This document shows, piece by piece, positions 40,450 through 55,842 of a stretch of DNA of 64,000 nt. The notes below the pieces were generated by a model. The model was not told the DNA's origin, made no database searches, and saw only the letters and a list, made by a program, of their open reading frames with translations. Both the position numbers and the translations under genes were made by a program. Positions within the stretch are counted from its first letter, which is position 1. Every line of letters begins with the position of its first letter. Source of the stretch: Anaerolineae bacterium (GTDB lineage Bacteria > Chloroflexota > Anaerolineae > Fen-1058); contig DATBWU010000155.1 of the NCBI GenBank assembly GCA_036514635.1, forward strand, positions 802 through 64,801, in the 5' to 3' direction.

Positions 40450-40484
40450 GATCGTGGAATGCTTACGCCATCAGAGAATTAGGG

Positions 40485-40552
40485 GACACGGATTTACACG
40501 GAACACACGGATCAATAAATCACATCCGGGCTCATCCGTGTTCATCCGCGTC
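40485..40552. repeat. Imperfect palindrome of CACGGAT words
   Basis: gacacggatttacacggaacacacggat ... atccgggctcatccgtgttcatccgcgtc. The right arm contains the GTG start of the M23 gene. Confidence 0.8.
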
Positions 40553-41812
40553 CTATTGATTATTTTTATCGCCCTCGTTCCACTTGCGCCGGCCGCCGCG
40601 CAATCCAACACATCGACGGTCTACGTCGTGCAGCCCGGCGATACGCTCTTCAGCATCGCGCGCCGATTCAACATCTCGGTCACCGAACTCGCGCAGTACA
40701 ACGGCCTGCTGAATCCCAACCTGATCTACGTCGGGCAGGAGATCAAGATTCCCGCGTCGGGGTCGCGCGCCACACCCTCGAGCACGCCCGCACTCGGCGT
40801 GCCCGGCGCGACCTATCGTGTCCATGTCGTTCAGCCGGGCGAGAATCTGTTCCGCATCGCGCTCAAGTACGGCGTCAGTGTGCAGTCGATTGCCAACGCG
40901 AACAACCTCGCCAACACATCGCTGATCTTTGTCGGCCAGCAGTTGAGCATCCCCGCCGCCGGAGATGCGCCGGTCGCTGCGCCAAGCGTTCCCCTGCCCG
41001 ATCCATTCCTGTCCTTCAACATCAGCCCGCTGCCGGTGGCGCAAGGCGACATCGTTCTCGTCAGGGTTCGCACGCGCGAGCCGGTCACGCTGGACGGTGT
41101 GTTCATCGACTGGGCTATCCCGTTTGCCCTGGAAGGCGACATCTACTACGGCCTCGTCGGCGTGTCGGCCAACCCGGTGAATGGGCCGCAGCTCGGCATC
41201 TATCCGCTCAGCGTCACCTCGACCGACGCGAACGGCGCGCAGGTCACGATCTCGGCCAGCGTGCAAGTGACGGCGGGCCGCTACAATTCCGAATACATCG
41301 ACCTGCCGCCCGATCGGCAGGCGCTGCTCGACCCGCAGCTTCTCGCCGCCGAGCGCGAGAAACTCGCCGCCGTGTGGACGATCTTCAACCCGGCGCGCTA
41401 CTGGAACGGCCCCTTCGCGCTGCCGATTCAGGATTTTACCAAGATCAGCTCGCCCTTCGGCACACGCCGATCGTACAACGGCGGCCCGCTCAGTTCGTAT
41501 CACGAGGGCACCGACTTCTCGGCCAAGACGGGCACGCCGGTCTACGCGCCCGCGAAGGGGGTCGTCGTGCTGGCCGAGCCGCTGATCGTGCGCGGCAACG
41601 CCATCGTCATCGACCACGGCTGGGGCGTGTTTACCGGCCTCTACCACCTGTCGGAGATCGATGTCACCGTCGGCCAGCAGGTGAAGCAGGGTGATTTCAT
41701 TGGCCGCGTCGGCGGCACAGGCCTGTCGACCGGCCCACACCTGCATTGGGACATCCGCATCCGCAGCCTCAACGTCGATCCGCTGCAATTGACCCGGCAG
41801 GCGCTGCCCTGA
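40538..41812 (+). CDS. LysM-domain M23 family metallopeptidase
   Basis: GTG 40538 gives the signal peptide MFIRVLLIIFIALVPLAPAAAQ. Two LysM repeats; M23 motifs YHEGTDF and GPHLHWD. Confidence 0.88.
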   Translation: MFIRVLLIIFIALVPLAPAAAQSNTSTVYVVQPGDTLFSIARRFNISVTELAQYNGLLNPNLIYVGQEIKIPASGSRATPSSTPALGVPGATYRVHVVQPGENLFRIALKYGVSVQSIANANNLANTSLIFVGQQLSIPAAGDAPVAAPSVPLPDPFLSFNISPLPVAQGDIVLVRVRTREPVTLDGVFIDWAIPFALEGDIYYGLVGVSANPVNGPQLGIYPLSVTSTDANGAQVTISASVQVTAGRYNSEYIDLPPDRQALLDPQLLAAEREKLAAVWTIFNPARYWNGPFALPIQDFTKISSPFGTRRSYNGGPLSSYHEGTDFSAKTGTPVYAPAKGVVVLAEPLIVRGNAIVIDHGWGVFTGLYHLSEIDVTVGQQVKQGDFIGRVGGTGLSTGPHLHWDIRIRSLNVDPLQLTRQALP

Positions 41813-41867: not shown

Positions 41868-42146
41868 CTATCGACCCTCTTGCTCATCGAAGTCAACAAC
41901 ATCCTCGTCCCCACCCACCTCAATCAACTCTCGCGCTTCCTCGGCGCGCTCGATCGGCACCAGCACGCGTACCTCGCCCAGCCCGTCGAACGTCATACCC
42001 ATGCCAGCTCCTACGGCCTCATAGTCGAGCACGGCCGGAATGCCTGAGGCTTCCAGGCGGCCTTTGATCACCTGCGCGCTCAACAACCCCGACGCGCGAT
42101 ACACGACCTGCAGCCCTTCCCGCTTTACATTTCTTGGCCCGAACAT
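41868..42146 (-). CDS. DUF2007-like small protein (putative signal-transducing, PII-like fold)
   Basis: 92 aa, SD GGAGG upstream. ...A.VIKGRLEASGIPAVL... pattern. Family call from memory. Confidence 0.55.
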   Translation of the reverse strand: MFGPRNVKREGLQVVYRASGLLSAQVIKGRLEASGIPAVLDYEAVGAGMGMTFDGLGEVRVLVPIERAEEARELIEVGGDEDVVDFDEQEGR

Positions 42147-42268: not shown

Positions 42269-43855
42269 ATGCGGTACCCCGCAGGAGTGCCTTTCACAGT
42301 GATTCAGCGCGCTACACAATCGCCTGACTACTGGACGCAGAAGTTCACCGTTCAGACAGATGACCTCGATTACCTGCTCAATCTTTTCCTGGATGACGAG
42401 CTGCCCCGCACTGCGGACGAATTAGCTTTGGAGTTGGTGCGCTATCGCTGCCAGCGCGAAGAAGCCGCGCTCAGCCGCGAATTGATCAAGGGCATACTGT
42501 ACCAGCCGAAGGATAGCTACAGCCCGGGCCAGCAGATTGTCTTTCCCGCGCTCCAGTTCGCCGTCGGCAAAGTCCTCGCCGTGCGCAACGGCGTCAACCC
42601 GGAAATCGGCCCGTTCAAAGTGATGCGCGTCGAAATGGGAGACGGTCGCACGCGAGACTTCGCCGCCGAATATCCCGTGCCGCATCATCTCAACATCGAC
42701 AGCCACCTGGCGCAAGAGCAGTCGTTGTTATCGCCCGAGGAAATCTTCTCGCGTCATAGCAAGTTGGTCGTGGAGCAGCTCGCACACAAATTGGAGCAGA
42801 CACCCGACCTGGTGTCCATCGCTGGCAAGTGGTTCCCGCGTGGCCTGATCCCCGACATGAACGTCGGCCATCTCAACTTGGCCGAAGCCGTGCTCGACAT
42901 GAACGGTGGCGGCCCGCTGCCCACCGAGTCGTTGCTCAAAGATATCGGGTTACCGTCGCAGATCAACCGCCCGCTGCAAACCTTCTCGCTCAATTACGCG
43001 CTGTACAAAGATGAACGCTTCGACGAAGTAGGCCCGGCCGGCGAAGTGATGTGGTTTCTGCGCCGCCTCGAGCCACCCGAAGTGCTGTATCAGCCGCCGC
43101 GCCTGATCGCCGTCGATGTGCCCTACGATCGGTCGCGCCTGGATCCGCCCCTGCTGCGCATCGAGCGCGAGATCGACGACGAACTGTCCAATATCCCCGC
43201 ACCCGATGAGGCGATCGACGAACTCACCTTCGTGCTCACCTATCCGCACCGGCGCGTCGGAACGCTGCCGCTGTCGCCGCGCATTGCCAAGCTGTTCCCC
43301 ACGGGGCGCACGCCTCGTATCCGTTTCATGTTCGAGGACGCGCGCACGGGGCAGCGCTGGCCGGGTTGGGTCGTGCGCGAGCACCGGTATGCCTTCGGAC
43401 TCGACACCTGGTACGAGGCCAACGAAGTGCCGGCCGGCGCATACGTGGAGATTCGGCGCAGTCGCGAGCCGGGCGTGATCGAAATCGACCTGCAGGGTCG
43501 CCGCCCCAAGCGCGAATGGGTGCGCGTGGCGCAGGTCAAAGACCGGCGCATCACGTTCGAGATGCTCAAGAAGCAGATCGCCTGCGATTACGATGAGCAA
43601 ATGATCCTCGCCGTCGATCGCCCGGCGGAGTTCGACGAGGCGTGGCTGCGCGCCGAGAACCGCTCGCTGCGCGATTGGATCGGCGACATTTTCCCCGAAC
43701 TCGCCAAACTCAGCCCACAGGGAACCGTGCACGCCAAGACACTCTACACCGCCGTCAACGCCGTGCGGCGCATCGCTCCCGGCCCACTCTTCGCCGAATG
43801 GAGCGTGCATCCGGCCGTGCGCATGGTCGGTGACGGATACGCCATCGTGCGGTGA
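42269..43855 (+). CDS. Hypothetical protein (528 aa), no domain recognised
   Basis: Long ORF with coding-like composition. ATG 42269 chosen after the -10 element (GTG 42299 possible). Confidence 0.6.
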   Translation: MRYPAGVPFTVIQRATQSPDYWTQKFTVQTDDLDYLLNLFLDDELPRTADELALELVRYRCQREEAALSRELIKGILYQPKDSYSPGQQIVFPALQFAVGKVLAVRNGVNPEIGPFKVMRVEMGDGRTRDFAAEYPVPHHLNIDSHLAQEQSLLSPEEIFSRHSKLVVEQLAHKLEQTPDLVSIAGKWFPRGLIPDMNVGHLNLAEAVLDMNGGGPLPTESLLKDIGLPSQINRPLQTFSLNYALYKDERFDEVGPAGEVMWFLRRLEPPEVLYQPPRLIAVDVPYDRSRLDPPLLRIEREIDDELSNIPAPDEAIDELTFVLTYPHRRVGTLPLSPRIAKLFPTGRTPRIRFMFEDARTGQRWPGWVVREHRYAFGLDTWYEANEVPAGAYVEIRRSREPGVIEIDLQGRRPKREWVRVAQVKDRRITFEMLKKQIACDYDEQMILAVDRPAEFDEAWLRAENRSLRDWIGDIFPELAKLSPQGTVHAKTLYTAVNAVRRIAPGPLFAEWSVHPAVRMVGDGYAIVR

Positions 43856-43893
43856 CGCGAAGCGCCGCACGGCCACGACGCCAGGGCAATCGG

Positions 43894-43902
43894 TGGTATA
43901 AT
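43894..43902 (+). promoter_or_regulatory. Extended -10 element TGgTATAAT immediately upstream of a terminator hairpin
   Basis: tggtataat at 43894-43902. Confidence 0.3.
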
Positions 43903-43906
43903 CACC

Positions 43907-43935
43907 CGCGGTCGAGACGACCGCGAGTTTTTTTT
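43907..43935 (+). terminator. Intrinsic terminator (8-bp GC stem plus T8)
   Basis: cgcggtcg aga cgaccgcg ag tttttttt. Ends 10 nt before ATG 43946. Confidence 0.75.
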
Positions 43936-43945
43936 AGGGACGTCA

Positions 43946-44395
43946 ATGATGAGTACACCAGGCCACAAGCTATCGCGCTTGATCAGACCGACGCTCGACA
44001 CGCCGTTTCATATCGATTTCGATTGGTGGGGAAAAGACGGGCGCGACTTGCGCGCCTACCTGCTCAGCCAGATTCCGCCCGACATGCGCGATGCGTATGC
44101 CGAGCTAAACGGCGAAGCGCTGGTCGACGTGGTCAATGCGGAAAGCGGCGAAGTCAAGCAGGAAGATGGCTTGTTGTCGCGCGTGCGATCACTGGCCAGG
44201 CAGCAATCCGACTTCGTCACCGCGCACACCTCGATCGTCGACGCGATATTCCGCACGTTCTTGATCAACGATAACCAGCCGCTCACCGCCTACGAGCTGT
44301 CTCGCCGCATCAATCGCGACGCCGGTTTGATCTTGCGCACGCTGGCCGGTGGACAGGTGTACAAGGGATTGCGCCCCTACATCGAAAAAGGCTGA
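43946..44395 (+). CDS. Hypothetical protein (149 aa), possible C-terminal winged helix
   Basis: No Cys. C-terminal ...PLTAYELSRRINRDAGLILRTLAGGQVYKGL. 2-nt gap to the next CDS. Confidence 0.6.
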   Translation: MMSTPGHKLSRLIRPTLDTPFHIDFDWWGKDGRDLRAYLLSQIPPDMRDAYAELNGEALVDVVNAESGEVKQEDGLLSRVRSLARQQSDFVTAHTSIVDAIFRTFLINDNQPLTAYELSRRINRDAGLILRTLAGGQVYKGLRPYIEKG

Positions 44396-44397
44396 GC

Positions 44398-44673
44398 GTG
44401 CGCGTCCAGGTGAAACTGCACGCTATTCTGCGTGATTATCGCCCGCCCGGCTTCAAGGGCGATGTGTTGAACGTCGTTGTGGAGGAAGGCGCGACGGTGC
44501 TGACCGCCATCGAACACCTGGGCATCCCGCGCAAGGTGCTGCACGCTGCCTTTCTCAACGATCAACAAGTGGGCGTGGACGCGACGCTCAAAGAGGGTGA
44601 CTTTCTCAGGCTCTTCCCGCCGGTGGTGGGCGGTTCCTCAGCCTCGCCCCGGCTGAGCCAGGGGAGCGGGTGA
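44398..44673 (+). CDS. MoaD/ThiS-family beta-grasp (ubiquitin-like) protein with a 12-residue extension after the GG
   Basis: GTG start. ...LKEGDFLRLFPPVVGG (GG codons 44629-44634) followed by SSASPRLSQGSG*. Confidence 0.75.
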   Translation: MRVQVKLHAILRDYRPPGFKGDVLNVVVEEGATVLTAIEHLGIPRKVLHAAFLNDQQVGVDATLKEGDFLRLFPPVVGGSSASPRLSQGSG

Positions 44674-44674
44674 G

Positions 44675-45112
44675 ATGCGCATCTTCCTCGCCGGCATCAT
44701 GCAAGGCTCGCGCCGCGAGAGGGGCATCGCGTCGCAAGAGTATCGTGCGCAGTTGGCGCAGGTGCTGCGCCAGCACCTCGACGATACACAGATCATCGAT
44801 CCCTTCACCTTGCATCCCGAGAGCGTCGATTACTCCTTCGAGGCGGGCCGGAAGACCCTGCTGGAAATGGCCGAGGCGGCCGGTCGGGCCGACGCGCTGG
44901 TGGCCTTCGTGCCGGAAGCCAGCATGGGGACCGCTATCGAAATCTGGGAAGCGTATCGCCATCAGCGTCCCATTTTCATCATCTCGCCGCTGCGCGAGAA
45001 CTGGGTCATCCGCTTCTTGTCGACGCGCGTGTTCGAAACGCACGAGGAGTTCATCGGCTTCGTCGCATCCGGCGAGTTCCAACGCGCCATCCAGTCGCAA
45101 TCGCCCCCGTAG
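44675..45112 (+). CDS. Nucleoside 2-deoxyribosyltransferase-like (SLOG/Rossmannoid) protein
   Basis: 145 aa. MRIFLAG..., ADALVAFVPEASMGTAIEIWEAY..RPIFII pattern. The last 10 nt, including the TAG stop, overlap tRNA-Arg. Confidence 0.65.
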   Translation: MRIFLAGIMQGSRRERGIASQEYRAQLAQVLRQHLDDTQIIDPFTLHPESVDYSFEAGRKTLLEMAEAAGRADALVAFVPEASMGTAIEIWEAYRHQRPIFIISPLRENWVIRFLSTRVFETHEEFIGFVASGEFQRAIQSQSPP

Positions 45113-45175
45113 CTCAATGGATAGAGCACCTGCCTTCTAAGCAGTAGGTTGTGGGTTCGAGTCCCGCCGGGGGCG
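45103..45175 (+). tRNA. tRNA-Arg (anticodon TCT)
   Basis: gcccccg-ta-gctc..gagc-a-cctgc-ctTCTaa-gcagt-aggtt-gtggg-ttcgagt-cccgc-cgggggc-g. One 27:43 mismatch. Confidence 0.9.
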
Positions 45176-45205
45176 CCTGTTCCTGAAGGTCTACATCTTG
45201 GAGGC

Positions 45206-45727
45206 GTGACCATTCCTGTCGCACCCACGTCGAGCATCCCGGATGTCCCGCGGCAGCAGATCGAGCACCTGGCGCAGACGCTGCTGGATCGCTACCAGGT
45301 TCGCCAGCCGCCGGTGCCGATCGAGCGGATGGTGGCCGAGCCGTCGCTGGGCCTGTGGGACGTCGATCAGACCGACTTGAGCGCGACCATCGGGCACGGG
45401 CTGTATCGCTATGCTCCACGCATGGCCCAGGCGCGACTGCTGTATCGCGCTATCTGCGACAGCGAGTCCGCGCGCCATCACGGGTTGAACGTACCTTGGC
45501 CGGCGTCGCGCCACGAGATCAAATACTTCGCGCGCTGCTTGCTGATACCGGAAGCCTGGGTGCGCACGCTGCCCCCTTCGCAGCACTACCCGGACATACT
45601 CAGCGAGATATTCCAAGTTCCCTCTTACGACATCGTAACGCGCCTGGCCGAACTCGGCCTCGACATTCCCGAATCCTCCACGGCTCAAACTCCTGATCCG
45701 GATGAGCCGGAACCCAACGTGCGATGA
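45206..45727 (+). CDS. ImmA/IrrE (M78)-like protein lacking the HExxH motif (pseudo-peptidase)
   Basis: GTG 45206 (start uncertain). Scaffold matches: PVPIERM..., RHEIKYFARCLLIPEAWV (E..AN.FA..LL.P), LSEIFQVPSYDIVTRLAELGL. YRAIC sits where HExxH is expected. Confidence 0.5.
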   Translation: MTIPVAPTSSIPDVPRQQIEHLAQTLLDRYQVRQPPVPIERMVAEPSLGLWDVDQTDLSATIGHGLYRYAPRMAQARLLYRAICDSESARHHGLNVPWPASRHEIKYFARCLLIPEAWVRTLPPSQHYPDILSEIFQVPSYDIVTRLAELGLDIPESSTAQTPDPDEPEPNVR

Positions 45728-46146: not shown

Positions 46147-46215
46147 TCGGTGAGAGGCATCTCCCGATGCCGGCTGTTGGCGACGGGAGTCGCACCTTAC
46201 CCTCCCATACTCACT

Positions 46216-48060
46216 ATGTCCTTCGGCAAACTCCTCATCGTCGATCTCACTCACCAAACCTGGCATGACCACCCAGTCGATCCAGACATCGCCCGCGATT
46301 ACGTCGGCGGCAGCGGCCTCGCTGCGCGCTTGCTGTGGGATCGCCTGACACCCGAGGTCGATCCACTCGGCCCCGACAACCCTTTGCTCTTCAGCACCGG
46401 CCCGTTGACCGGCACGGCCGGCCCGACCAACGGTCGCTTCAGCGTGTGCGCCCGATCGCCCGCCACCGGCTTGTGGGGCGAGGCCAACTGCGGCGGCTTC
46501 TGGGGACCGGAATTGCGCTTCGCCGGATACGATGGCGTGCTGATCACCGGAAAAGCCGACGCACCCGTTTATCTGTGGATCAACAACGGTAAGGTCGAAC
46601 TGCGCGACGCCTCGCACTTGTGGGGAGAGACCGACACTTACCAGACGCAGCAGCGTATCCAAGAGGAAGTCGGCGATGGGCTGGCACGCATCGCCTGCAT
46701 CGGCGTGGCAGGTGAGCGATTGATTCCGTATGCGCTCATCCTGTGCGATCATGGCCGGGTCGCGGGCCGCACCGGCATGGGCGCGGTGATGGGCAGCAAA
46801 AACCTCAAAGCCATCGCCGTGCGCGGTCACGGCAAACTGCCTATCGCGCGGCCCGAAGTGTTCCAGCCGATTCGCTCCTCGGCCAACAGAGCACTGCGCG
46901 AGGAAAACGTCACCCTCTCGTTGCGCGCGTCCGGCAGCGCCGCCGCCGCCGAATACTTTCAACTCCTCGGCGAAATGCCCGCGCGCTATTTCACCGCCGG
47001 GCAATTCGCGGGGCAGGAGAGCGTCAGCGGCAGCGTCATCGCAGACACGATCCTCACGGGAGTCACCACCTGCCACGCCTGCGTCATCGCCTGCGGGCGG
47101 CGGGTCACCATCAAAGACGGGCCTTACGCGCGCGAAGAAAGCAAAGGCCCGGAATACGAAACGATGGTGGGCTTCGGCGCGATCCTCGGCAGCGGCGACA
47201 TGCACGCGGCCACGCACCTCGGCCAGTTGTGCGACGCCTACGGCCTGGACACGATCAGCACCAGCAACGTCATCGGCCTGGCCTACCTCCTGTTCGAGCG
47301 CGGCCTGCTCAGCGGGCGCGACACTGGCGGCTTGAGACTCGTGTGGGGCGATCCGCGCCCGGCTGAAGCACTGATTCACCTGATCGCTCGCCGCGAAGGC
47401 TTAGGCGAAGTGATGAGTCGGGGTGCGAAGGCGCTCGGCGCGCACTTCGGCGTGGCGGAGCTTGCCGTGCAGGTCAACAACCTGGAAGTGCCCTATCACG
47501 ATCCGCGCGCGCTATCCGGCATGGGCATCGTGTATGCCACGTCGCCGCGCGGCGCGTGCCACAACCAGGGCGACTTCTTCACCACCGAAGTCGGCGCCAG
47601 CCACGAAGAGATCGGCATCCCGATCCTCACCCCGCCCGTCCCGGACGAAGGCAAAGCCGCGCTCGTCGCCCGGCATCAGGATTTTCGCTCCCTGAGCAAT
47701 AGCCTGGTGACGTGCGTCTTCGCTCGCGTGCCGGTGACGACGCACCTGGCACTGTACAACGCCGCCGCCGGCATCGACTGGGGCCTCGACGAATTCATGC
47801 GGGCGGGCGCGCGCATCTGGAACCTCAAGCGCGTCATCAACCATCGCCTCGGCCTGACGCGCGAGAACGATAAACTGCCCAAGCTCCTGCTCGAACCGCT
47901 GCCCGACGGCCCGATCGCGGGACACGTGCCCGACTACGACGTGCTGATGCGCGAATACTATGCTGCGCGCGGATGGGACTTCGTCACCGGCCGCCCGACG
48001 CGCGCGACACTCGAAGCGCTCGACCTCGACTTCGCCGCCGATGCGCTATACAAAGAATGA
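46216..48060 (+). CDS. Aldehyde:ferredoxin oxidoreductase family (tungstopterin/4Fe-4S)
   Basis: ATG 46216. MSFGKLLIVDLT..., GGSGLAARLLW, CHACVIACGR cluster region, AOR C-terminal domains. Confidence 0.93.
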   Translation: MSFGKLLIVDLTHQTWHDHPVDPDIARDYVGGSGLAARLLWDRLTPEVDPLGPDNPLLFSTGPLTGTAGPTNGRFSVCARSPATGLWGEANCGGFWGPELRFAGYDGVLITGKADAPVYLWINNGKVELRDASHLWGETDTYQTQQRIQEEVGDGLARIACIGVAGERLIPYALILCDHGRVAGRTGMGAVMGSKNLKAIAVRGHGKLPIARPEVFQPIRSSANRALREENVTLSLRASGSAAAAEYFQLLGEMPARYFTAGQFAGQESVSGSVIADTILTGVTTCHACVIACGRRVTIKDGPYAREESKGPEYETMVGFGAILGSGDMHAATHLGQLCDAYGLDTISTSNVIGLAYLLFERGLLSGRDTGGLRLVWGDPRPAEALIHLIARREGLGEVMSRGAKALGAHFGVAELAVQVNNLEVPYHDPRALSGMGIVYATSPRGACHNQGDFFTTEVGASHEEIGIPILTPPVPDEGKAALVARHQDFRSLSNSLVTCVFARVPVTTHLALYNAAAGIDWGLDEFMRAGARIWNLKRVINHRLGLTRENDKLPKLLLEPLPDGPIAGHVPDYDVLMREYYAARGWDFVTGRPTRATLEALDLDFAADALYKE

Positions 48061-52224: not shown

Positions 52225-52473
52225 TCATGCGGGGGGGCGGTTGACAACCAACAGCGCGATCGCGCTGCCGAGCGTGGCTTCGAGCAGGTGCACTTCGCCC
52301 AGCATCGCCCCGTTCCAGCCGAGCAAGGCACCGGCTACCTGCCCCAAGCCAAAGCCGATCCAGCTTGCGATCATGAACAATCCCAATCGGCGCAGGGTCC
52401 CGCCGCGCCACAGGTGAAAGGCTGCGCCGTAGGCGGTCGAGAGCAACGCCACGGTCAACAATATGGGGGTCAT
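52225..52473 (-). CDS. Small hydrophobic membrane protein (82 aa)
   Basis: ATG 52473 overlaps the mnmA stop (ATGA). Three predicted TM segments. Only the 3' third of ORF 52225..52941 looks real. Confidence 0.5.
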   Translation of the reverse strand: MTPILLTVALLSTAYGAAFHLWRGGTLRRLGLFMIASWIGFGLGQVAGALLGWNGAMLGEVHLLEATLGSAIALLVVNRPPA

Positions 52474-53537
52474 ATGATAATGCCCTGCCCGATGGCGACC
52501 TCGCCATCGAACAGCACCAGCGCCTGGCCCGGCGTCACGTCGCGCTGCGGCTCGTCGAACTCGACGCGGATCGAGTCGCCCTGCGGGTAGGCCATCGCCG
52601 GCACCGCGCGCGCCGTGTAGCGAATCTTCGCTTCCGCGCGGAACGACCCGCTCGGCGCGACCCCGCTGACGTAGTGCATATCGCGCGCCACGCATTCGCG
52701 CCGGCCCAGTTCGGCGAGCGAGCCGACGATGAGCGCGTTGTCGGCGGCGTCCTTCGCAATGACGTACAACGGCTCGGCGGCGGCGAGGCCCAAGCCCTTG
52801 CGCTGGCCGACGGTGAAGAACGGCAAGCCGGTGTGTTGGCCCAAGACGTGTCCGGAAGTGTCGCGAATAACGCCCGGCCGAATCGCGTCCGGTGCGTGGC
52901 GTATCAGGAAGGCGCGATAATCGCCGTCGCCCAGGAAACACAAATCCTGGCTTTCCATCTTTTCGGCGACCGGCAGCTTCATCCGTGCTGCGTGCGCGCG
53001 CACCTCAGGCTTCGTCAGTTCGCCCAGCGGAAACATCACGTGCGCTAACTGCGCCTGGCCCAGCACGCTCAAGACGTAGGATTGATCCTTATTTCGATCG
53101 ACGGCGCGCAGCAAGTGGTACGTGCCATCGACCTGCCGCACACGCGCGTAATGTCCCGTCGCCAGAGCCTGCGCGCCCAGTCCCAGCGCTTTGTTCAGCA
53201 GCATCTCAAAGCGAATGTGCCGGTTGCACTCCAGGCACGGGTTGGGCGTGACACCCGCCGCGTACTCGCGAACGAAAAAATCGACGACAATGGACTTGAA
53301 CGAGTCGGCGATGTTGATCAGGTAAAAGGGGATGCCGAGTTGATCCGCGATGGATCGCGCAATGGCGACGTCGGCCGGCGTGCAGCAGCGGTTGGTGCGC
53401 GAGCCGCCTTCCTCGCTCCACAACTTGAGCATGATGCCGGCCACGTCGTAGCCCTGCTCGACCAGCAAGGCCGCCGCGACCGAACTATCGACGCCGCCGC
53501 TCATCGCGACGACGACGCGGGCGCTGTTGCGATCCAT
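52470..53537 (-). CDS. mnmA: tRNA 2-thiouridine(34) synthase
   Basis: 355 aa. PP-loop VVAMSGGVDSSVAA, catalytic Cys regions (NPCLECN, DLCFL). Confidence 0.95.
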   Translation of the reverse strand: MDRNSARVVVAMSGGVDSSVAAALLVEQGYDVAGIMLKLWSEEGGSRTNRCCTPADVAIARSIADQLGIPFYLINIADSFKSIVVDFFVREYAAGVTPNPCLECNRHIRFEMLLNKALGLGAQALATGHYARVRQVDGTYHLLRAVDRNKDQSYVLSVLGQAQLAHVMFPLGELTKPEVRAHAARMKLPVAEKMESQDLCFLGDGDYRAFLIRHAPDAIRPGVIRDTSGHVLGQHTGLPFFTVGQRKGLGLAAAEPLYVIAKDAADNALIVGSLAELGRRECVARDMHYVSGVAPSGSFRAEAKIRYTARAVPAMAYPQGDSIRVEFDEPQRDVTPGQALVLFDGEVAIGQGIII

Positions 53538-54096: not shown

Positions 54097-55281
54097 TCAG
54101 TTCATTGCGGACATCGGCGCGTGCTCCCTCAGTCGCGCGACGACGCGCGGCAGAACGTCCAGCACTATGTCGATGTCCTCCGGCTGCGTCAGATGCCCCA
54201 GCGTCAGGCGCAGCGATCCGACGGCCCACTCGCGCGGCAGGCCCATCGCCGTCAGCACGAACGACGGCTCGGCTTCGCCCGTGGTGCAGGCCGATCCGGT
54301 CGAGACGCAAATGCCCTCCAGGTCGAGCGCCAGCAGGGCAGATTCACCTTCGACGCCCTTCAGCGCAAACGATGCGCTATTGGGTAGTCGCCCGGTCGGA
54401 TGGCCGGTGAGCTTCACGTCGGGCACGCGCTCTAGCACGCCCTTGACTAATCGATCGCGCAACGCGGGCAATCGCGCCGACTCGCTCGCGCGGTTTTCCG
54501 TTGCCAGCTTCAACGCCGCCGCCGCGCCGACCACGCCCGCCACGTTGACCGTGCCCGGCCGGCGACCGCGCTCGTGCCCGCCACCGGTCAGCGCCGGGAC
54601 GAGTTCCGCCCCGCGTCGGACGTACAGAATGCCGACGCCTTTCGGGCCGTAGAATTTGTGCGCCGACAACGCGAGCAGATCGACGTTCAGATCATCGACC
54701 TTGAGGCTGAGCGCCCCGGCGGCTTGAACCGCATCGGTGTGAAAGACGATGCCCTTGCGCCTGGCGATTGCGCCGATCTCGCCAATCGGTTGAATCGTAC
54801 CAACCTCATTGTTGGCGTACATCACGCTGATCAGGCCGGTATCGCGCCGGATCGCGCGGCCTATCGCATCGGGATCGACGCGGCCATAGTCGTCCACGTC
54901 GACGACGGTCAGTTCGAACCCGTGCAGGTCGTGCAACTGGTCAAGCGTATGCCCGACGGCGTGGTGCTCGATTGGCGTCGTGATGATGTGACTCCCCCGC
55001 CCAGTCTGGCGTGCCGCCCACGCCGCGCCGCGCAACGCCAGGTTATCGCTTTCTGTGCCGCATCCGGTAAAGACGACCTCCATCGGGTTGCAGCCCAGCA
55101 CATCGGCGACAGTCGAGCGGGCTTGTTCCAGGGCTTTCAACGCCGCCCGGCCCGCGCCGTGAATCGACGACGTATTGCCGAACGCGCCGGCCCAATACGG
55201 CTGCATCGCTTCGACCACGCGCGGATCGACCGGCGTGGTCGCCGCGTGATCGAGATAGATCGTGCGCTGTGCTTCACTCAT
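54097..55281 (-). CDS. Cysteine desulfurase (NifS/IscS class)
   Basis: ATG 55281 with SD GGGGGAG. IYLDHAATTP, SAHKFYGPKG (PLP Lys), STGSACT (catalytic Cys). Confidence 0.93.
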   Translation of the reverse strand: MSEAQRTIYLDHAATTPVDPRVVEAMQPYWAGAFGNTSSIHGAGRAALKALEQARSTVADVLGCNPMEVVFTGCGTESDNLALRGAAWAARQTGRGSHIITTPIEHHAVGHTLDQLHDLHGFELTVVDVDDYGRVDPDAIGRAIRRDTGLISVMYANNEVGTIQPIGEIGAIARRKGIVFHTDAVQAAGALSLKVDDLNVDLLALSAHKFYGPKGVGILYVRRGAELVPALTGGGHERGRRPGTVNVAGVVGAAAALKLATENRASESARLPALRDRLVKGVLERVPDVKLTGHPTGRLPNSASFALKGVEGESALLALDLEGICVSTGSACTTGEAEPSFVLTAMGLPREWAVGSLRLTLGHLTQPEDIDIVLDVLPRVVARLREHAPMSAMN

Positions 55282-55362
55282 GGCTCCCCCTTGTGCCGGG
55301 TCGATTGTAGCACGCGCCCATAGCCCCGTCAACGCAATTGGTGTAAAATCGCGGCCGGGGCG

Positions 55363-55842
55363 ATGCAGACCATCTACGTTTTGATCGGCGCGCCGGCTTG
55401 TGGCAAGACGCAATGGGCGTTACGCAACGCGAAGCGACTGGGCGCGTTCATCCTATCGGCGGATGTCGTGCGCGAGGCCATTCGCCAATCCGGCGGCGAT
55501 CCGTTCGACGGCGATCGCGTCTTCGCCGAACTCGGCCAGCGGCTCAGCGAGCGCCTGTTGTCGGGCGACTCGGTGATTGTTGACGCCACGCACTGGCAGC
55601 GCCAATACCGATCGTACGCCGTGAGCGCGGCCCGCGCGGTGGGCGCGCGCATCGTCGGCGTGTGGTTCGATGTTCCGCTGGAGGTGTGCCTGCAACGCAA
55701 CGATAGCCGCCTCGGCAGCAGTCCCGGTCTGCGCCGCGAAGACCCCGAGACGATCCGACGTATCCATGTCGGGCTTGAACTGCCTTCAATCGAAGAATTT
55801 GACGAAATCCATCGCATCCAGTATGCAACCGAATCCTGGTGA
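55363..55842 (+). CDS. P-loop kinase-like protein (AAA_33 type), paralog 1
   Basis: 159 aa. Walker A GAPACGKT, VIVDATH, WFDVPLEVCLQRN. About half identical by eye to 57228..57707. Confidence 0.75.
   Translation: MQTIYVLIGAPACGKTQWALRNAKRLGAFILSADVVREAIRQSGGDPFDGDRVFAELGQRLSERLLSGDSVIVDATHWQRQYRSYAVSAARAVGARIVGVWFDVPLEVCLQRNDSRLGSSPGLRREDPETIRRIHVGLELPSIEEFDEIHRIQYATESW

Follow-up and report, generated by a model that had tools for sequence, protein, structure and literature searches.

DNPH1 (Rcl), a 2'-deoxynucleoside 5'-phosphate N-hydrolase, and the CMP and hydroxymethyl-CMP (hmCMP) N-glycosidases MilB and BlsM belong to the fold of the nucleoside 2-deoxyribosyltransferases (NDT). DNPH1 uses the catalytic triad Y24/D80/E104 and forms a covalent glycosyl-glutamate intermediate; in MilB, F17 replaces Y24 and accommodates ribose (PMC10603095). 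The beta-grasp proteins MoaD, ThiS, SAMP1 and TtuB provide a second point of comparison for the locus analyzed here, as do MoaX (MoaD-MoaE) and Ub-Mut7C (beta-grasp plus RNase domain), in which an N-terminal beta-grasp is followed by the enzyme that it serves. The locus lies in a 64,000-nucleotide stretch of an Anaerolineae bacterium genome (contig DATBWU010000155.1, positions 802 to 64,801), called the window throughout, in which three closely packed genes run into a tRNA-Arg(UCU) gene. The genes encode an orphan protein (A), a ubiquitin-like (Ubl) beta-grasp protein (B) and a predicted NDT-fold protein (C). Comparison with related loci shows that a gene cluster conserved across Anaerolineae (Chloroflexota), so far undescribed, takes the form of this trio in the window. 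The reading we favor, with a probability of roughly 0.6, is a vertically inherited Anaerolineae housekeeping operon, E-A-[Ubl]-[NDT]-tRNA-Arg(UCU), in which B and C are a functional pair and C is a ribonucleotide N-glycosidase.

Each fold in the cluster is a known one; what is undescribed is a Ubl combined with an NDT-fold protein, the E and A families, and an operon ending in a tRNA that supplies a stop codon. A literature search on PF15891, Nuc_deoxyri_tr2, ThiS/MoaD-deoxyribosyltransferase fusions and the E and A families found no papers. Anaerolineae are plentiful in sediments, sludge and soils, and few are in culture. The locus holds two orphan families, A and the large family E (more than 6000 clusters at 90% identity), and the Ubl-NDT fusion found in relatives supplies a concrete hypothesis on the function of each half. 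Across at least five phyla the NDT-like family is near-invariant, and the locus would be of greater interest still if the GG tail of the Ubl joins the chemistry at the NDT active site.

A gene cluster ending in tRNA-Arg(UCU) is conserved across Anaerolineae

The conserved unit in the window consists of the following features, all on the + strand.

42299..43855, +: E, a 518-aa orphan-family protein, with its start set by the homologue cluster
43893..43933, +: E-A intergenic element, TGGTATAAT (extended -10-like), then an 8-bp GC-rich hairpin and T8
43946..44395, +: A, a 149-aa Cys-free orphan-family protein (open reading frame), the partner of E
44398..44673, +: B, a 91-aa MoaD/ThiS/SAMP-type beta-grasp protein (Ubl), ending FPPVVGG plus the 12-residue tail SSASPRLSQGSG
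44675..45112, +: C, a 145-aa NDT/DNPH1/MilB-fold N-glycosidase-like protein (predicted), starting MRIFLAGIMQGS and containing PEASMGTAIEIWEAY
45103..45177, +: tRNA-Arg(UCU), gene anticodon TCT, found by ARAGORN and by the Rfam tRNA model (70.9 bits)

The gaps are 2 nt between A and B and 1 nt between B and C, and C ends 10 nt within tRNA-Arg(TCT). The open reading frames, ARAGORN and Rfam agree on this packing, which an initial annotation of the sequence had described correctly. That annotation took the trio to be the whole unit and omitted E and the tRNA as parts, whereas the unit that recurs is E-A-[Ubl]-[NDT]-tRNA-Arg. It had noted the protein upstream but gave it 528 aa, where the homologue cluster gives 518. 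The G+C content at third codon positions (GC3) of every open reading frame is 0.74-0.77, comparable to that of the adjacent genes. In an Rfam scan of the region the tRNA alone scored above threshold, and a sub-threshold tfoR match at 43837-43935 was disregarded.

Homologue searches returned 1130 sequences for C, 150 for A and more than 6000 for E. We sampled 80 genomic loci via the C family and 80 metagenomic loci via E, and scored E, A, Ubl and NDT in them with hidden Markov models; the comparison took in 162 related loci, and the named relatives are Anaerolineae and Thermoflexales metagenome-assembled genomes. E was followed by A in 63 of the 64 loci with enough sequence to show A. Four variants follow A on the same strand. 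In the 84 loci that extend 200 nt or more downstream, 16 had Ubl and NDT, fused or split, 27 had NDT alone, 12 had Ubl alone and 29 had neither. A tRNA-Arg(TCT) gene lay on the same strand within 400 nt downstream of the cluster in 59 of these 84 loci, and no other tRNA occupied that position. All 35 Ubl genes lay directly 3' of A, a one-way statement since the loci were gathered via C or E. Nine Chloroflexota loci had NDT followed by tRNA-Arg(TCT) without E-A. Counting the 63/64 E-A pairs, the 59/84 tRNAs and a recurrent 10-nt overlap between stop codon and tRNA (below), the arrangement is far beyond chance. The suggestion that the trio belongs to one conserved, undescribed unit was thus borne out by its co-location across related loci.

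The flanks are kept as well. A LysM-M23 homologue was present upstream in 55 and DUF2007 in 52 of 103 E-A loci, and YjeF/Nnr and MnmA are syntenic downstream across the class. This flanking synteny shows vertical inheritance. The closest metagenomic relative of the window, L083, whose E is 76% identical, has the order E-A-Ubl(GG*)-tRNA-Arg-D-SCP2-AOR, with a Ubl-tRNA gap of 92 nt and no NDT gene (D, SCP2 and AOR are neighbors described below). Since the order is otherwise the same, NDT was gained or lost very recently in the lineage of the window and L083.

The NDT gene is solitary in Planctomycetota, Zixibacteria, Latescibacteria and Acidobacteria and has no constant partner there; a search for one outside Chloroflexota found loose neighbors alone. 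The solitary NDT-like gene of the Planctomycetota loci (L048-L082) often stands beside a gene for an RlmN-like radical-SAM methyltransferase (11 loci), and tRNA-His(GTG) follows the NDT-like gene twice in this group. Separately, 10 Anaerolineae loci without E-A carry a PriA-like gene upstream, on the opposite strand.

C is predicted to have the fold of NDT, DNPH1 and MilB

For a structural view of C we used an AlphaFold2 (AF2) model of a fusion homologue, P0025, which is 59% identical to C. Its mean predicted local distance difference test (pLDDT) score was 88.7, with low values only at the GG/linker (residues 77-80) and at the QGSRR loop (93-97). In a Foldseek search against the PDB, the top matches of the C-terminal domain were CtNDT (8qc0, a cyanobacterial NDT), an NDT-like protein of E. 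faecalis (7m5h), human DNPH1 (8rpt) and MilB (4jem), with E-values of 1e-5 to 1e-4 and template modeling (TM) scores of 0.6-0.67. Nearly all of the top 50 were NDT, DNPH1 or MilB (E-values 1e-5 to 6e-4, TM 0.58-0.68). At the sequence level, 13-14 of 59 relatives matched PF15891 or PF05014 with an E-value of at most 0.01.

The initial annotation had described C as 2-deoxyribosyltransferase-like or SLOG-like. LOG/SLOG phosphoribohydrolases are Rossmann-like nucleoside monophosphate N-glycosidases with a similar P...GTxxE segment. However, Foldseek ranked NDT, DNPH1 and MilB first; DprA, at rank 43, was the first and only SLOG protein in the top 50, no LOG structure appeared there, and neither C nor its relatives had a Pfam SLOG/LOG match. 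The model thus supports an NDT/DNPH1/MilB fold and does not support SLOG proper: the NDT half of the proposal is sustained by the weak Pfam matches, by Foldseek and by an alignment to rat Rcl, and the SLOG half is not.

An alignment of 32 sequences from five phyla had 21 invariant columns: F4, G7, Q10, G11, Q21, Y23, R24, P43, Y53, D73, A77, P80, A82, S83, M84, G85, A87, E89, W91, N109 and W110. Aligned with rat Rcl, FLAGIMQGS of C falls onto YFCGSIRGG and PEASMGTAIEMWEAY onto TQPSLGVGYELGRAV, so that F4 registers with the catalytic Tyr and E89 with the nucleophilic Glu of GYELG. An hhalign comparison with human DNPH1 gave the same registration, with E89 on E104. C therefore resembles DNPH1, Rcl and MilB in its fold (TM 0.6-0.67), in its Gly-rich loop (F-x-A-G-I-M-Q-G-S against Y-F-C-G-S-I-R-G-G) and in a PxxSxGxxxE segment with the Glu nucleophile, and resembles MilB in having Phe where DNPH1 has Tyr24. 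It differs from them in an invariant set of its own (Q10, Q21-x-Y23-R24, Y53 and N109-W110), which is not described for those enzymes, in the N-terminal Ubl of many family members and in an operon that ends in a tRNA. Because F4 occupies the Tyr24 position, as Phe does in MilB, a ribonucleotide is the probable substrate. By analogy with these enzymes, C is most likely a ribonucleoside-5'-phosphate N-glycosidase, possibly one that acts on a modified nucleotide.

B and C are joined in most relatives

B matched two Pfam models above their curated cut-offs, Ub-Mut7C (PF14451; 33.4 bits, 4.4e-8, cut-off 23), its best-scoring model, and ThiS (PF02597; 31.2 bits, 3.3e-7, cut-off 22.5), confirming the earlier assignment to the ThiS/MoaD-type beta-grasp. 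Both models were also matched by 46 of 59 relatives. Foldseek matched the N-terminal domain of the fusion model to SAMP1 (3po0) and MoaD (1fm0/1nvi). B did not reach the NCBIfam MoaD models TIGR01682 and PRK11130 (14 bits, cut-off 66, and 18 bits, cut-off 94) or the SAMP1 equivalog (27 bits, cut-off 60). Thus, B is like MoaD, ThiS, SAMP1 and TtuB in its Pfam and structural matches, its FPPVxGG end and the many stand-alone family members that end exactly at GG. Unlike them, it is no MoaD or SAMP1 equivalog, has no MoaE or ThiG nearby and, by a crude motif check, no E1 or JAMM, and belongs to a family that is usually joined at GG to an NDT-fold enzyme, or tailed.

That joining is the main finding on B and C. 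Among the 1130 homologues of C, nearly all of those at about 60% identity and lower are 225-249 aa long and carry an N-terminal ThiS/Ub-Mut7C domain, so that in most relatives one Ubl-NDT polypeptide combines what are here B and C. In the fusion alignment, ...LFPPVVGG is followed by a variable linker of 3-20 residues and then by RVFIAGIMQGS.... The fusion argues that B and C work together. MoaX and Ub-Mut7C have the same layout of an N-terminal beta-grasp before its enzyme, and differ in that here the partner is an NDT-fold glycosidase (predicted). The post-GG tail of B, which had been singled out as a special feature, occupies the position of the fusion linker and is of similar length; the fusion is the commonest form of the family.

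The separate reading frames of B and C could be taken for a frameshifted fusion gene that has degenerated, for a pseudogene or for an assembly error, since the two lie in different frames one nucleotide apart and the tail of B is linker-like. We consider this highly improbable. None of the 18 nearest homologues of C (61-71% identity) is fused, all being stand-alone and 132-154 aa long; two split lineages, L001 and L008, are cleanly separated, with a Ubl that terminates exactly at GG*; and both open reading frames keep all family-invariant residues and a high GC3. The ATG of C is preceded at 8 nt by AGGGGAG, which resembles a Shine-Dalgarno (SD) element. The split state of the nearest relatives, the retained invariant residues and the SD-like AGGGGAG argue that the division between B and C is no artefact.

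The junction itself, at 44660-44677 (AGGGGAG-c-GGG-TGA-g-ATG), resembles the +1 frameshift site of prfB, in that an SD-like element precedes a slippery codon and UGA. If ribosomes shifted by +1 at GGG-UGA, the product would be ...SQGSG-E-M-R-I-F..., a restored Ubl-NDT fusion. The SD at this junction is equally explicable as the ordinary ribosome-binding site of C.

The motif FPPVVGG is conserved in fused, tailed and free forms of the Ubl. Stand-alone Ubl relatives end either exactly at GG* (about ten) or at GG plus 2-15 aa. Together, the conserved motif and the many free forms ending at GG* suggest that the tail is used, as in MoaD or ThiS. This raises the alternative that B and C are a sulfur-carrier or Ubl-conjugation pair on the logic of MoaD/MoaE or ThiS/ThiG. 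Cutting at the linker or tail would free GG, an E1 of MoeB/ThiF type from another locus would adenylate it, and thiocarboxylation would follow; GG would then enter the NDT-fold active site, where sulfur would capture the glycosyl-enzyme intermediate to yield a thio-sugar or thio-nucleotide, a product that could have a part in modifying tRNA-Arg(UCU) or in its turnover. The strict conservation of FPPVVGG and the free ends fit this scheme, as does the fact that the true carriers SAMP1 and MoaD are the nearest structural matches of the Ubl. GG and linker are disordered in the P0025 model (pLDDT below 50 at residues 77-80), and a tRNA gene closes the operon. NDT-fold enzymes pass a glycosyl group to an incoming nucleophile, and the fused MoaD-MoaE protein MoaX is cleaved after GG. 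Nevertheless, the cluster contains no E1, JAMM or sulfurtransferase, and a crude motif check of the window showed none either; most members of the NDT family, including all those of other phyla, are without any Ubl; the MoaD and SAMP1 scores lie far under their cut-offs; and we know of no precedent for sulfur chemistry on the NDT fold. On balance we regard a sulfur-carrier role as unlikely. A more elaborate proposal, in which Ubl-NDT is a new carrier/enzyme pair whose GG tail delivers sulfur or forms a covalent linkage at the active site, so as to make or remove a modified nucleotide tied to tRNA-Arg(UCU), and E-A is a class-wide pair of DNA-binding proteins, unrecognized until now, that controls the operon, appears slightly less likely still.

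Sulfur-related genes do occur at some distance in the window. At 7-10 kb downstream there are MnmA (tRNA 2-thiouridylase) and a cysteine-desulfurase-like gene (52470-53537 and 54097-55413, both - strand), a proximity that deserves mention given a sulfur-carrier-like Ubl beside a tRNA gene. Nine related loci, including L104, also have MnmA on the opposite strand within a few kb downstream, probably through synteny only.

The stop codon of C lies within the tRNA gene

The stop codon of C, TAG, is formed by positions U8-A9-G10 of tRNA-Arg. Five further loci, L001, L003, L009, L021 and L030, show an overlap of likewise 10 nt, and in L007 it is 18 nt; the overlap thus recurs in distant loci. Across the loci, the spacing between NDT stop and tRNA is -10 to +41 nt in most cases, which leaves no space for a promoter of the tRNA's own and makes co-transcription the natural inference; A, B, C and the tRNA would then share one transcript. 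RNase P cutting at the 5' end of the tRNA would strip the stop codon from the upstream mRNA and so leave a non-stop message. The operon design is therefore an unusual coupling of mRNA and tRNA, in which several lineages borrow a stop codon from tRNA positions 8-10.

Upstream of A, the element at 43893-43933 could serve A-B-C-tRNA as a promoter or as a 5' leader (stem-loop or attenuator), could terminate E, or could do both. The same layout with different stem sequences is present in L001 and L092, in what looks like compensatory change. Runs of at least five T were found in only 4 of 100 loci, indicating that the element is specific to this sub-clade; on the same count we rejected the idea that E generally ends in a terminator ahead of A.

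E and A are orphan families

We scored 6283 clusters (90% identity) of the E family and found none with a Pfam domain; a Pfam scan of all E members was empty, as was a profile search of PDB sequences. Between loci, E shows 44-80% identity, and the family is apparently confined to Anaerolineae-type Chloroflexota. The AF2 model of E (pLDDT 85) has an N-terminal helical region, an SH3/KOW-like barrel, a tri-helical helix-turn-helix (HTH), a B3-like pseudobarrel (residues ~308-425) and a C-terminal winged-helix-like domain. Foldseek matched plant B3 domains with a probability of 0.97-0.99 and a target-normalized TM-score of 0.52-0.59, at an E-value of only 0.04-0.07; further weak matches were to EF-P domain I, SAWADEE and the winged helices of SelB. 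E probably contains a B3-like DNA-binding barrel. The likeness is to the pseudobarrel of B3, EcoRII-N and BfiI-C, since plant B3 domains bound to DNA are the best structural matches of the model. E differs in having no nuclease or other catalytic domain; its remaining ~400 residues are without a clear counterpart, and it has no Pfam match. Collectively, the weak B3, EF-P, SAWADEE and SelB matches fit a nucleic-acid-binding protein with no recognizable enzyme domain.

A has a conserved N-terminal motif, PTLDTPFHIDFDWW, and a C-terminus resembling a winged HTH (wHTH), FR.FL.NGN.PLT..EL...L.R....ILRTLAG.RVY.GLRP. The helix-turn-helix-like character that the initial annotation gave this end has a counterpart in sub-threshold wHTH Pfam matches of some members (WH_GDS1, HTH_20 and MarR) and in nothing above threshold. 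Searches with A gave no match in Pfam or, by profile, in the PDB, and neither A nor E matched NCBIfam, PADLOC or PHROGs. We also rejected a HARE-HTH identity for A or for the C-terminus of E (hhalign against the N-terminal domain of B. subtilis RpoE delta, probability below 1%) and homology of A to a domain of E (hhalign probability 3.6%).

A probable housekeeping operon with a predicted nucleotide N-glycosidase

In the housekeeping reading that we favor, C would act by the chemistry of its fold. E89 would attack C1' to give a ribosyl-phosphate-enzyme intermediate, and the Gly-rich N-terminal loop GIMQGS would hold the phosphate. F4 would replace the deoxy-selecting Tyr, making a ribonucleotide the probable substrate. 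The FPPVVGG end of B would serve C either as a tethered partner domain or as a carrier once the GG end is exposed.

Several results weigh against this reading. On the side of C, the Pfam matches fall below the gathering thresholds (PF15891, Nuc_deoxyri_tr2, 7e-5 and 23.5 bits, cut-off 30; PF05014, 15.1 bits, cut-off 28.8), so that the similarity to DNPH1 and MilB is below family thresholds, and a profile search against the PDB gave weak matches (E-value ~0.5), although five of the six were NDT or Rcl. In addition, no conserved acid aligns with the general acid D80 of DNPH1; candidate positions in C are 42, which is Asp in most members and Cys in some, and H47. The ribonucleotide N-glycosidase activity is accordingly a prediction. 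On the side of the operon, E-A occurs without Ubl or NDT in about one third of loci, the closest relative, L083, carries Ubl and no NDT, and both other phyla and many Chloroflexota loci have NDT in the absence of E-A. Synteny alone may therefore account for the link between E-A and B-C. Unrelated housekeeping genes also keep their order in the class, making adjacency alone weak evidence of function, and any tie of B-C to E-A or to the tRNA would accordingly be of this tentative kind. What the data show is the layout of the locus, its conservation, the fusion, the folds and the retained active-site residues; catalysis, the preference for ribose and co-transcription are predictions.

Neighboring genes and the remaining alternatives

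Outside the conserved unit, the window holds the following neighbors.

40454..41812, +: LysM-LysM-Peptidase_M23 gene, a conserved syntenic upstream neighbor outside the functional unit (Pfam labels taken from L001)
41868..42146, -: small DUF2007 protein, divergent from E, a conserved neighbor (Pfam DUF2007 in L001 and L002)
45206..45727, +: D, a 173-aa M78 (ImmA/IrrE)-related protein with a GTG start, 28 nt past the tRNA
46150-48060: aldehyde:ferredoxin oxidoreductase (AOR), a strong Pfam match

Because AOR lies 1.5 kb downstream, the initial annotation had offered a mundane alternative, in which B is a MoaD serving the tungstopterin AOR. In full, B would carry sulfur for the tungsto- or molybdopterin of this enzyme, and the remainder of the cluster would be unrelated. 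The strong match of AOR and the weak MoaD-like matches of B are compatible with it. However, AOR, together with SCP2, is adjacent to Ubl only in the window and in L083 (2 of 35 Ubl loci), on which ground we reject this reading. Moreover, the Ubl is fused to an NDT domain in most relatives, B scores 14 bits where the moaD equivalog demands 66, and neither moaE nor moeB was seen in the neighborhoods examined. We give a MoaD dedicated to AOR almost no credence.

The 173-aa reading frame after the tRNA is as first described, except that the gap is 28 nt and not thirty. D had been called a dead protein with the ImmA/IrrE scaffold that follows the module. It scores 13.1 bits against Peptidase_M78 (cut-off 22), and its family, with 61 representatives, shows a weak relation to M78 (19 of 44 members match weakly, best E-value 1.6e-5), in keeping with the proposed scaffold. 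HExxH is absent from all 44 aligned members, which have the consensus R-M-x-x-A-R-x-L-A-R at the expected position; its absence is thus a trait of the family and not the mark of a decayed gene. D-like genes lie directly past the tRNA in the window and in 6 of ~100 loci (L083, L099, L152, L036, L110 and L105). D is a recurrent but optional neighbor and not part of the core.

These results also bear on the conflict or signaling flavor that the initial annotation had seen in the locus. On such a reading, the Ubl, an NDT/SLOG-type enzyme and the ImmA-like protein would form a module inserted beside the tRNA as a genomic island. These folds do recur in conflict systems, and the tRNA-adjacent position and the M78-related protein downstream would suit such a module. 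Against this, no PADLOC model matched the SCP2 protein or any of A to E, PHROGs likewise gave no match, and the window is ordinary high-GC chromosome with dnaG (primase), rpoD, pst, panB/panC, proS, eno (enolase) and mnmA; the empty searches and the housekeeping surroundings make a conflict system unlikely. The locus and its flanks (LysM-M23, DUF2007, YjeF and MnmA) are syntenic class-wide, as expected of vertical inheritance, and the conservation of E and its pairing with A speak in the same direction. In addition, the tRNA does not mark an island border but closes the operon at its 3' end, on the same strand; neither an integrase nor an effector was found, and a crude regular-expression search of the window found no E1 (ThiF) or JAMM motif; and HExxH is missing from the D family, which occurs in only 7 loci. 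A mobile conflict module is, in our judgment, very unlikely.

Finally, several members of the D family (P0374, P0406, P0418 and others) carry extra N-terminal domains, among them an RsmD-like methyltransferase (Cons_hypoth95), a response-regulator receiver, beta-flower and Roadblock/LC7.

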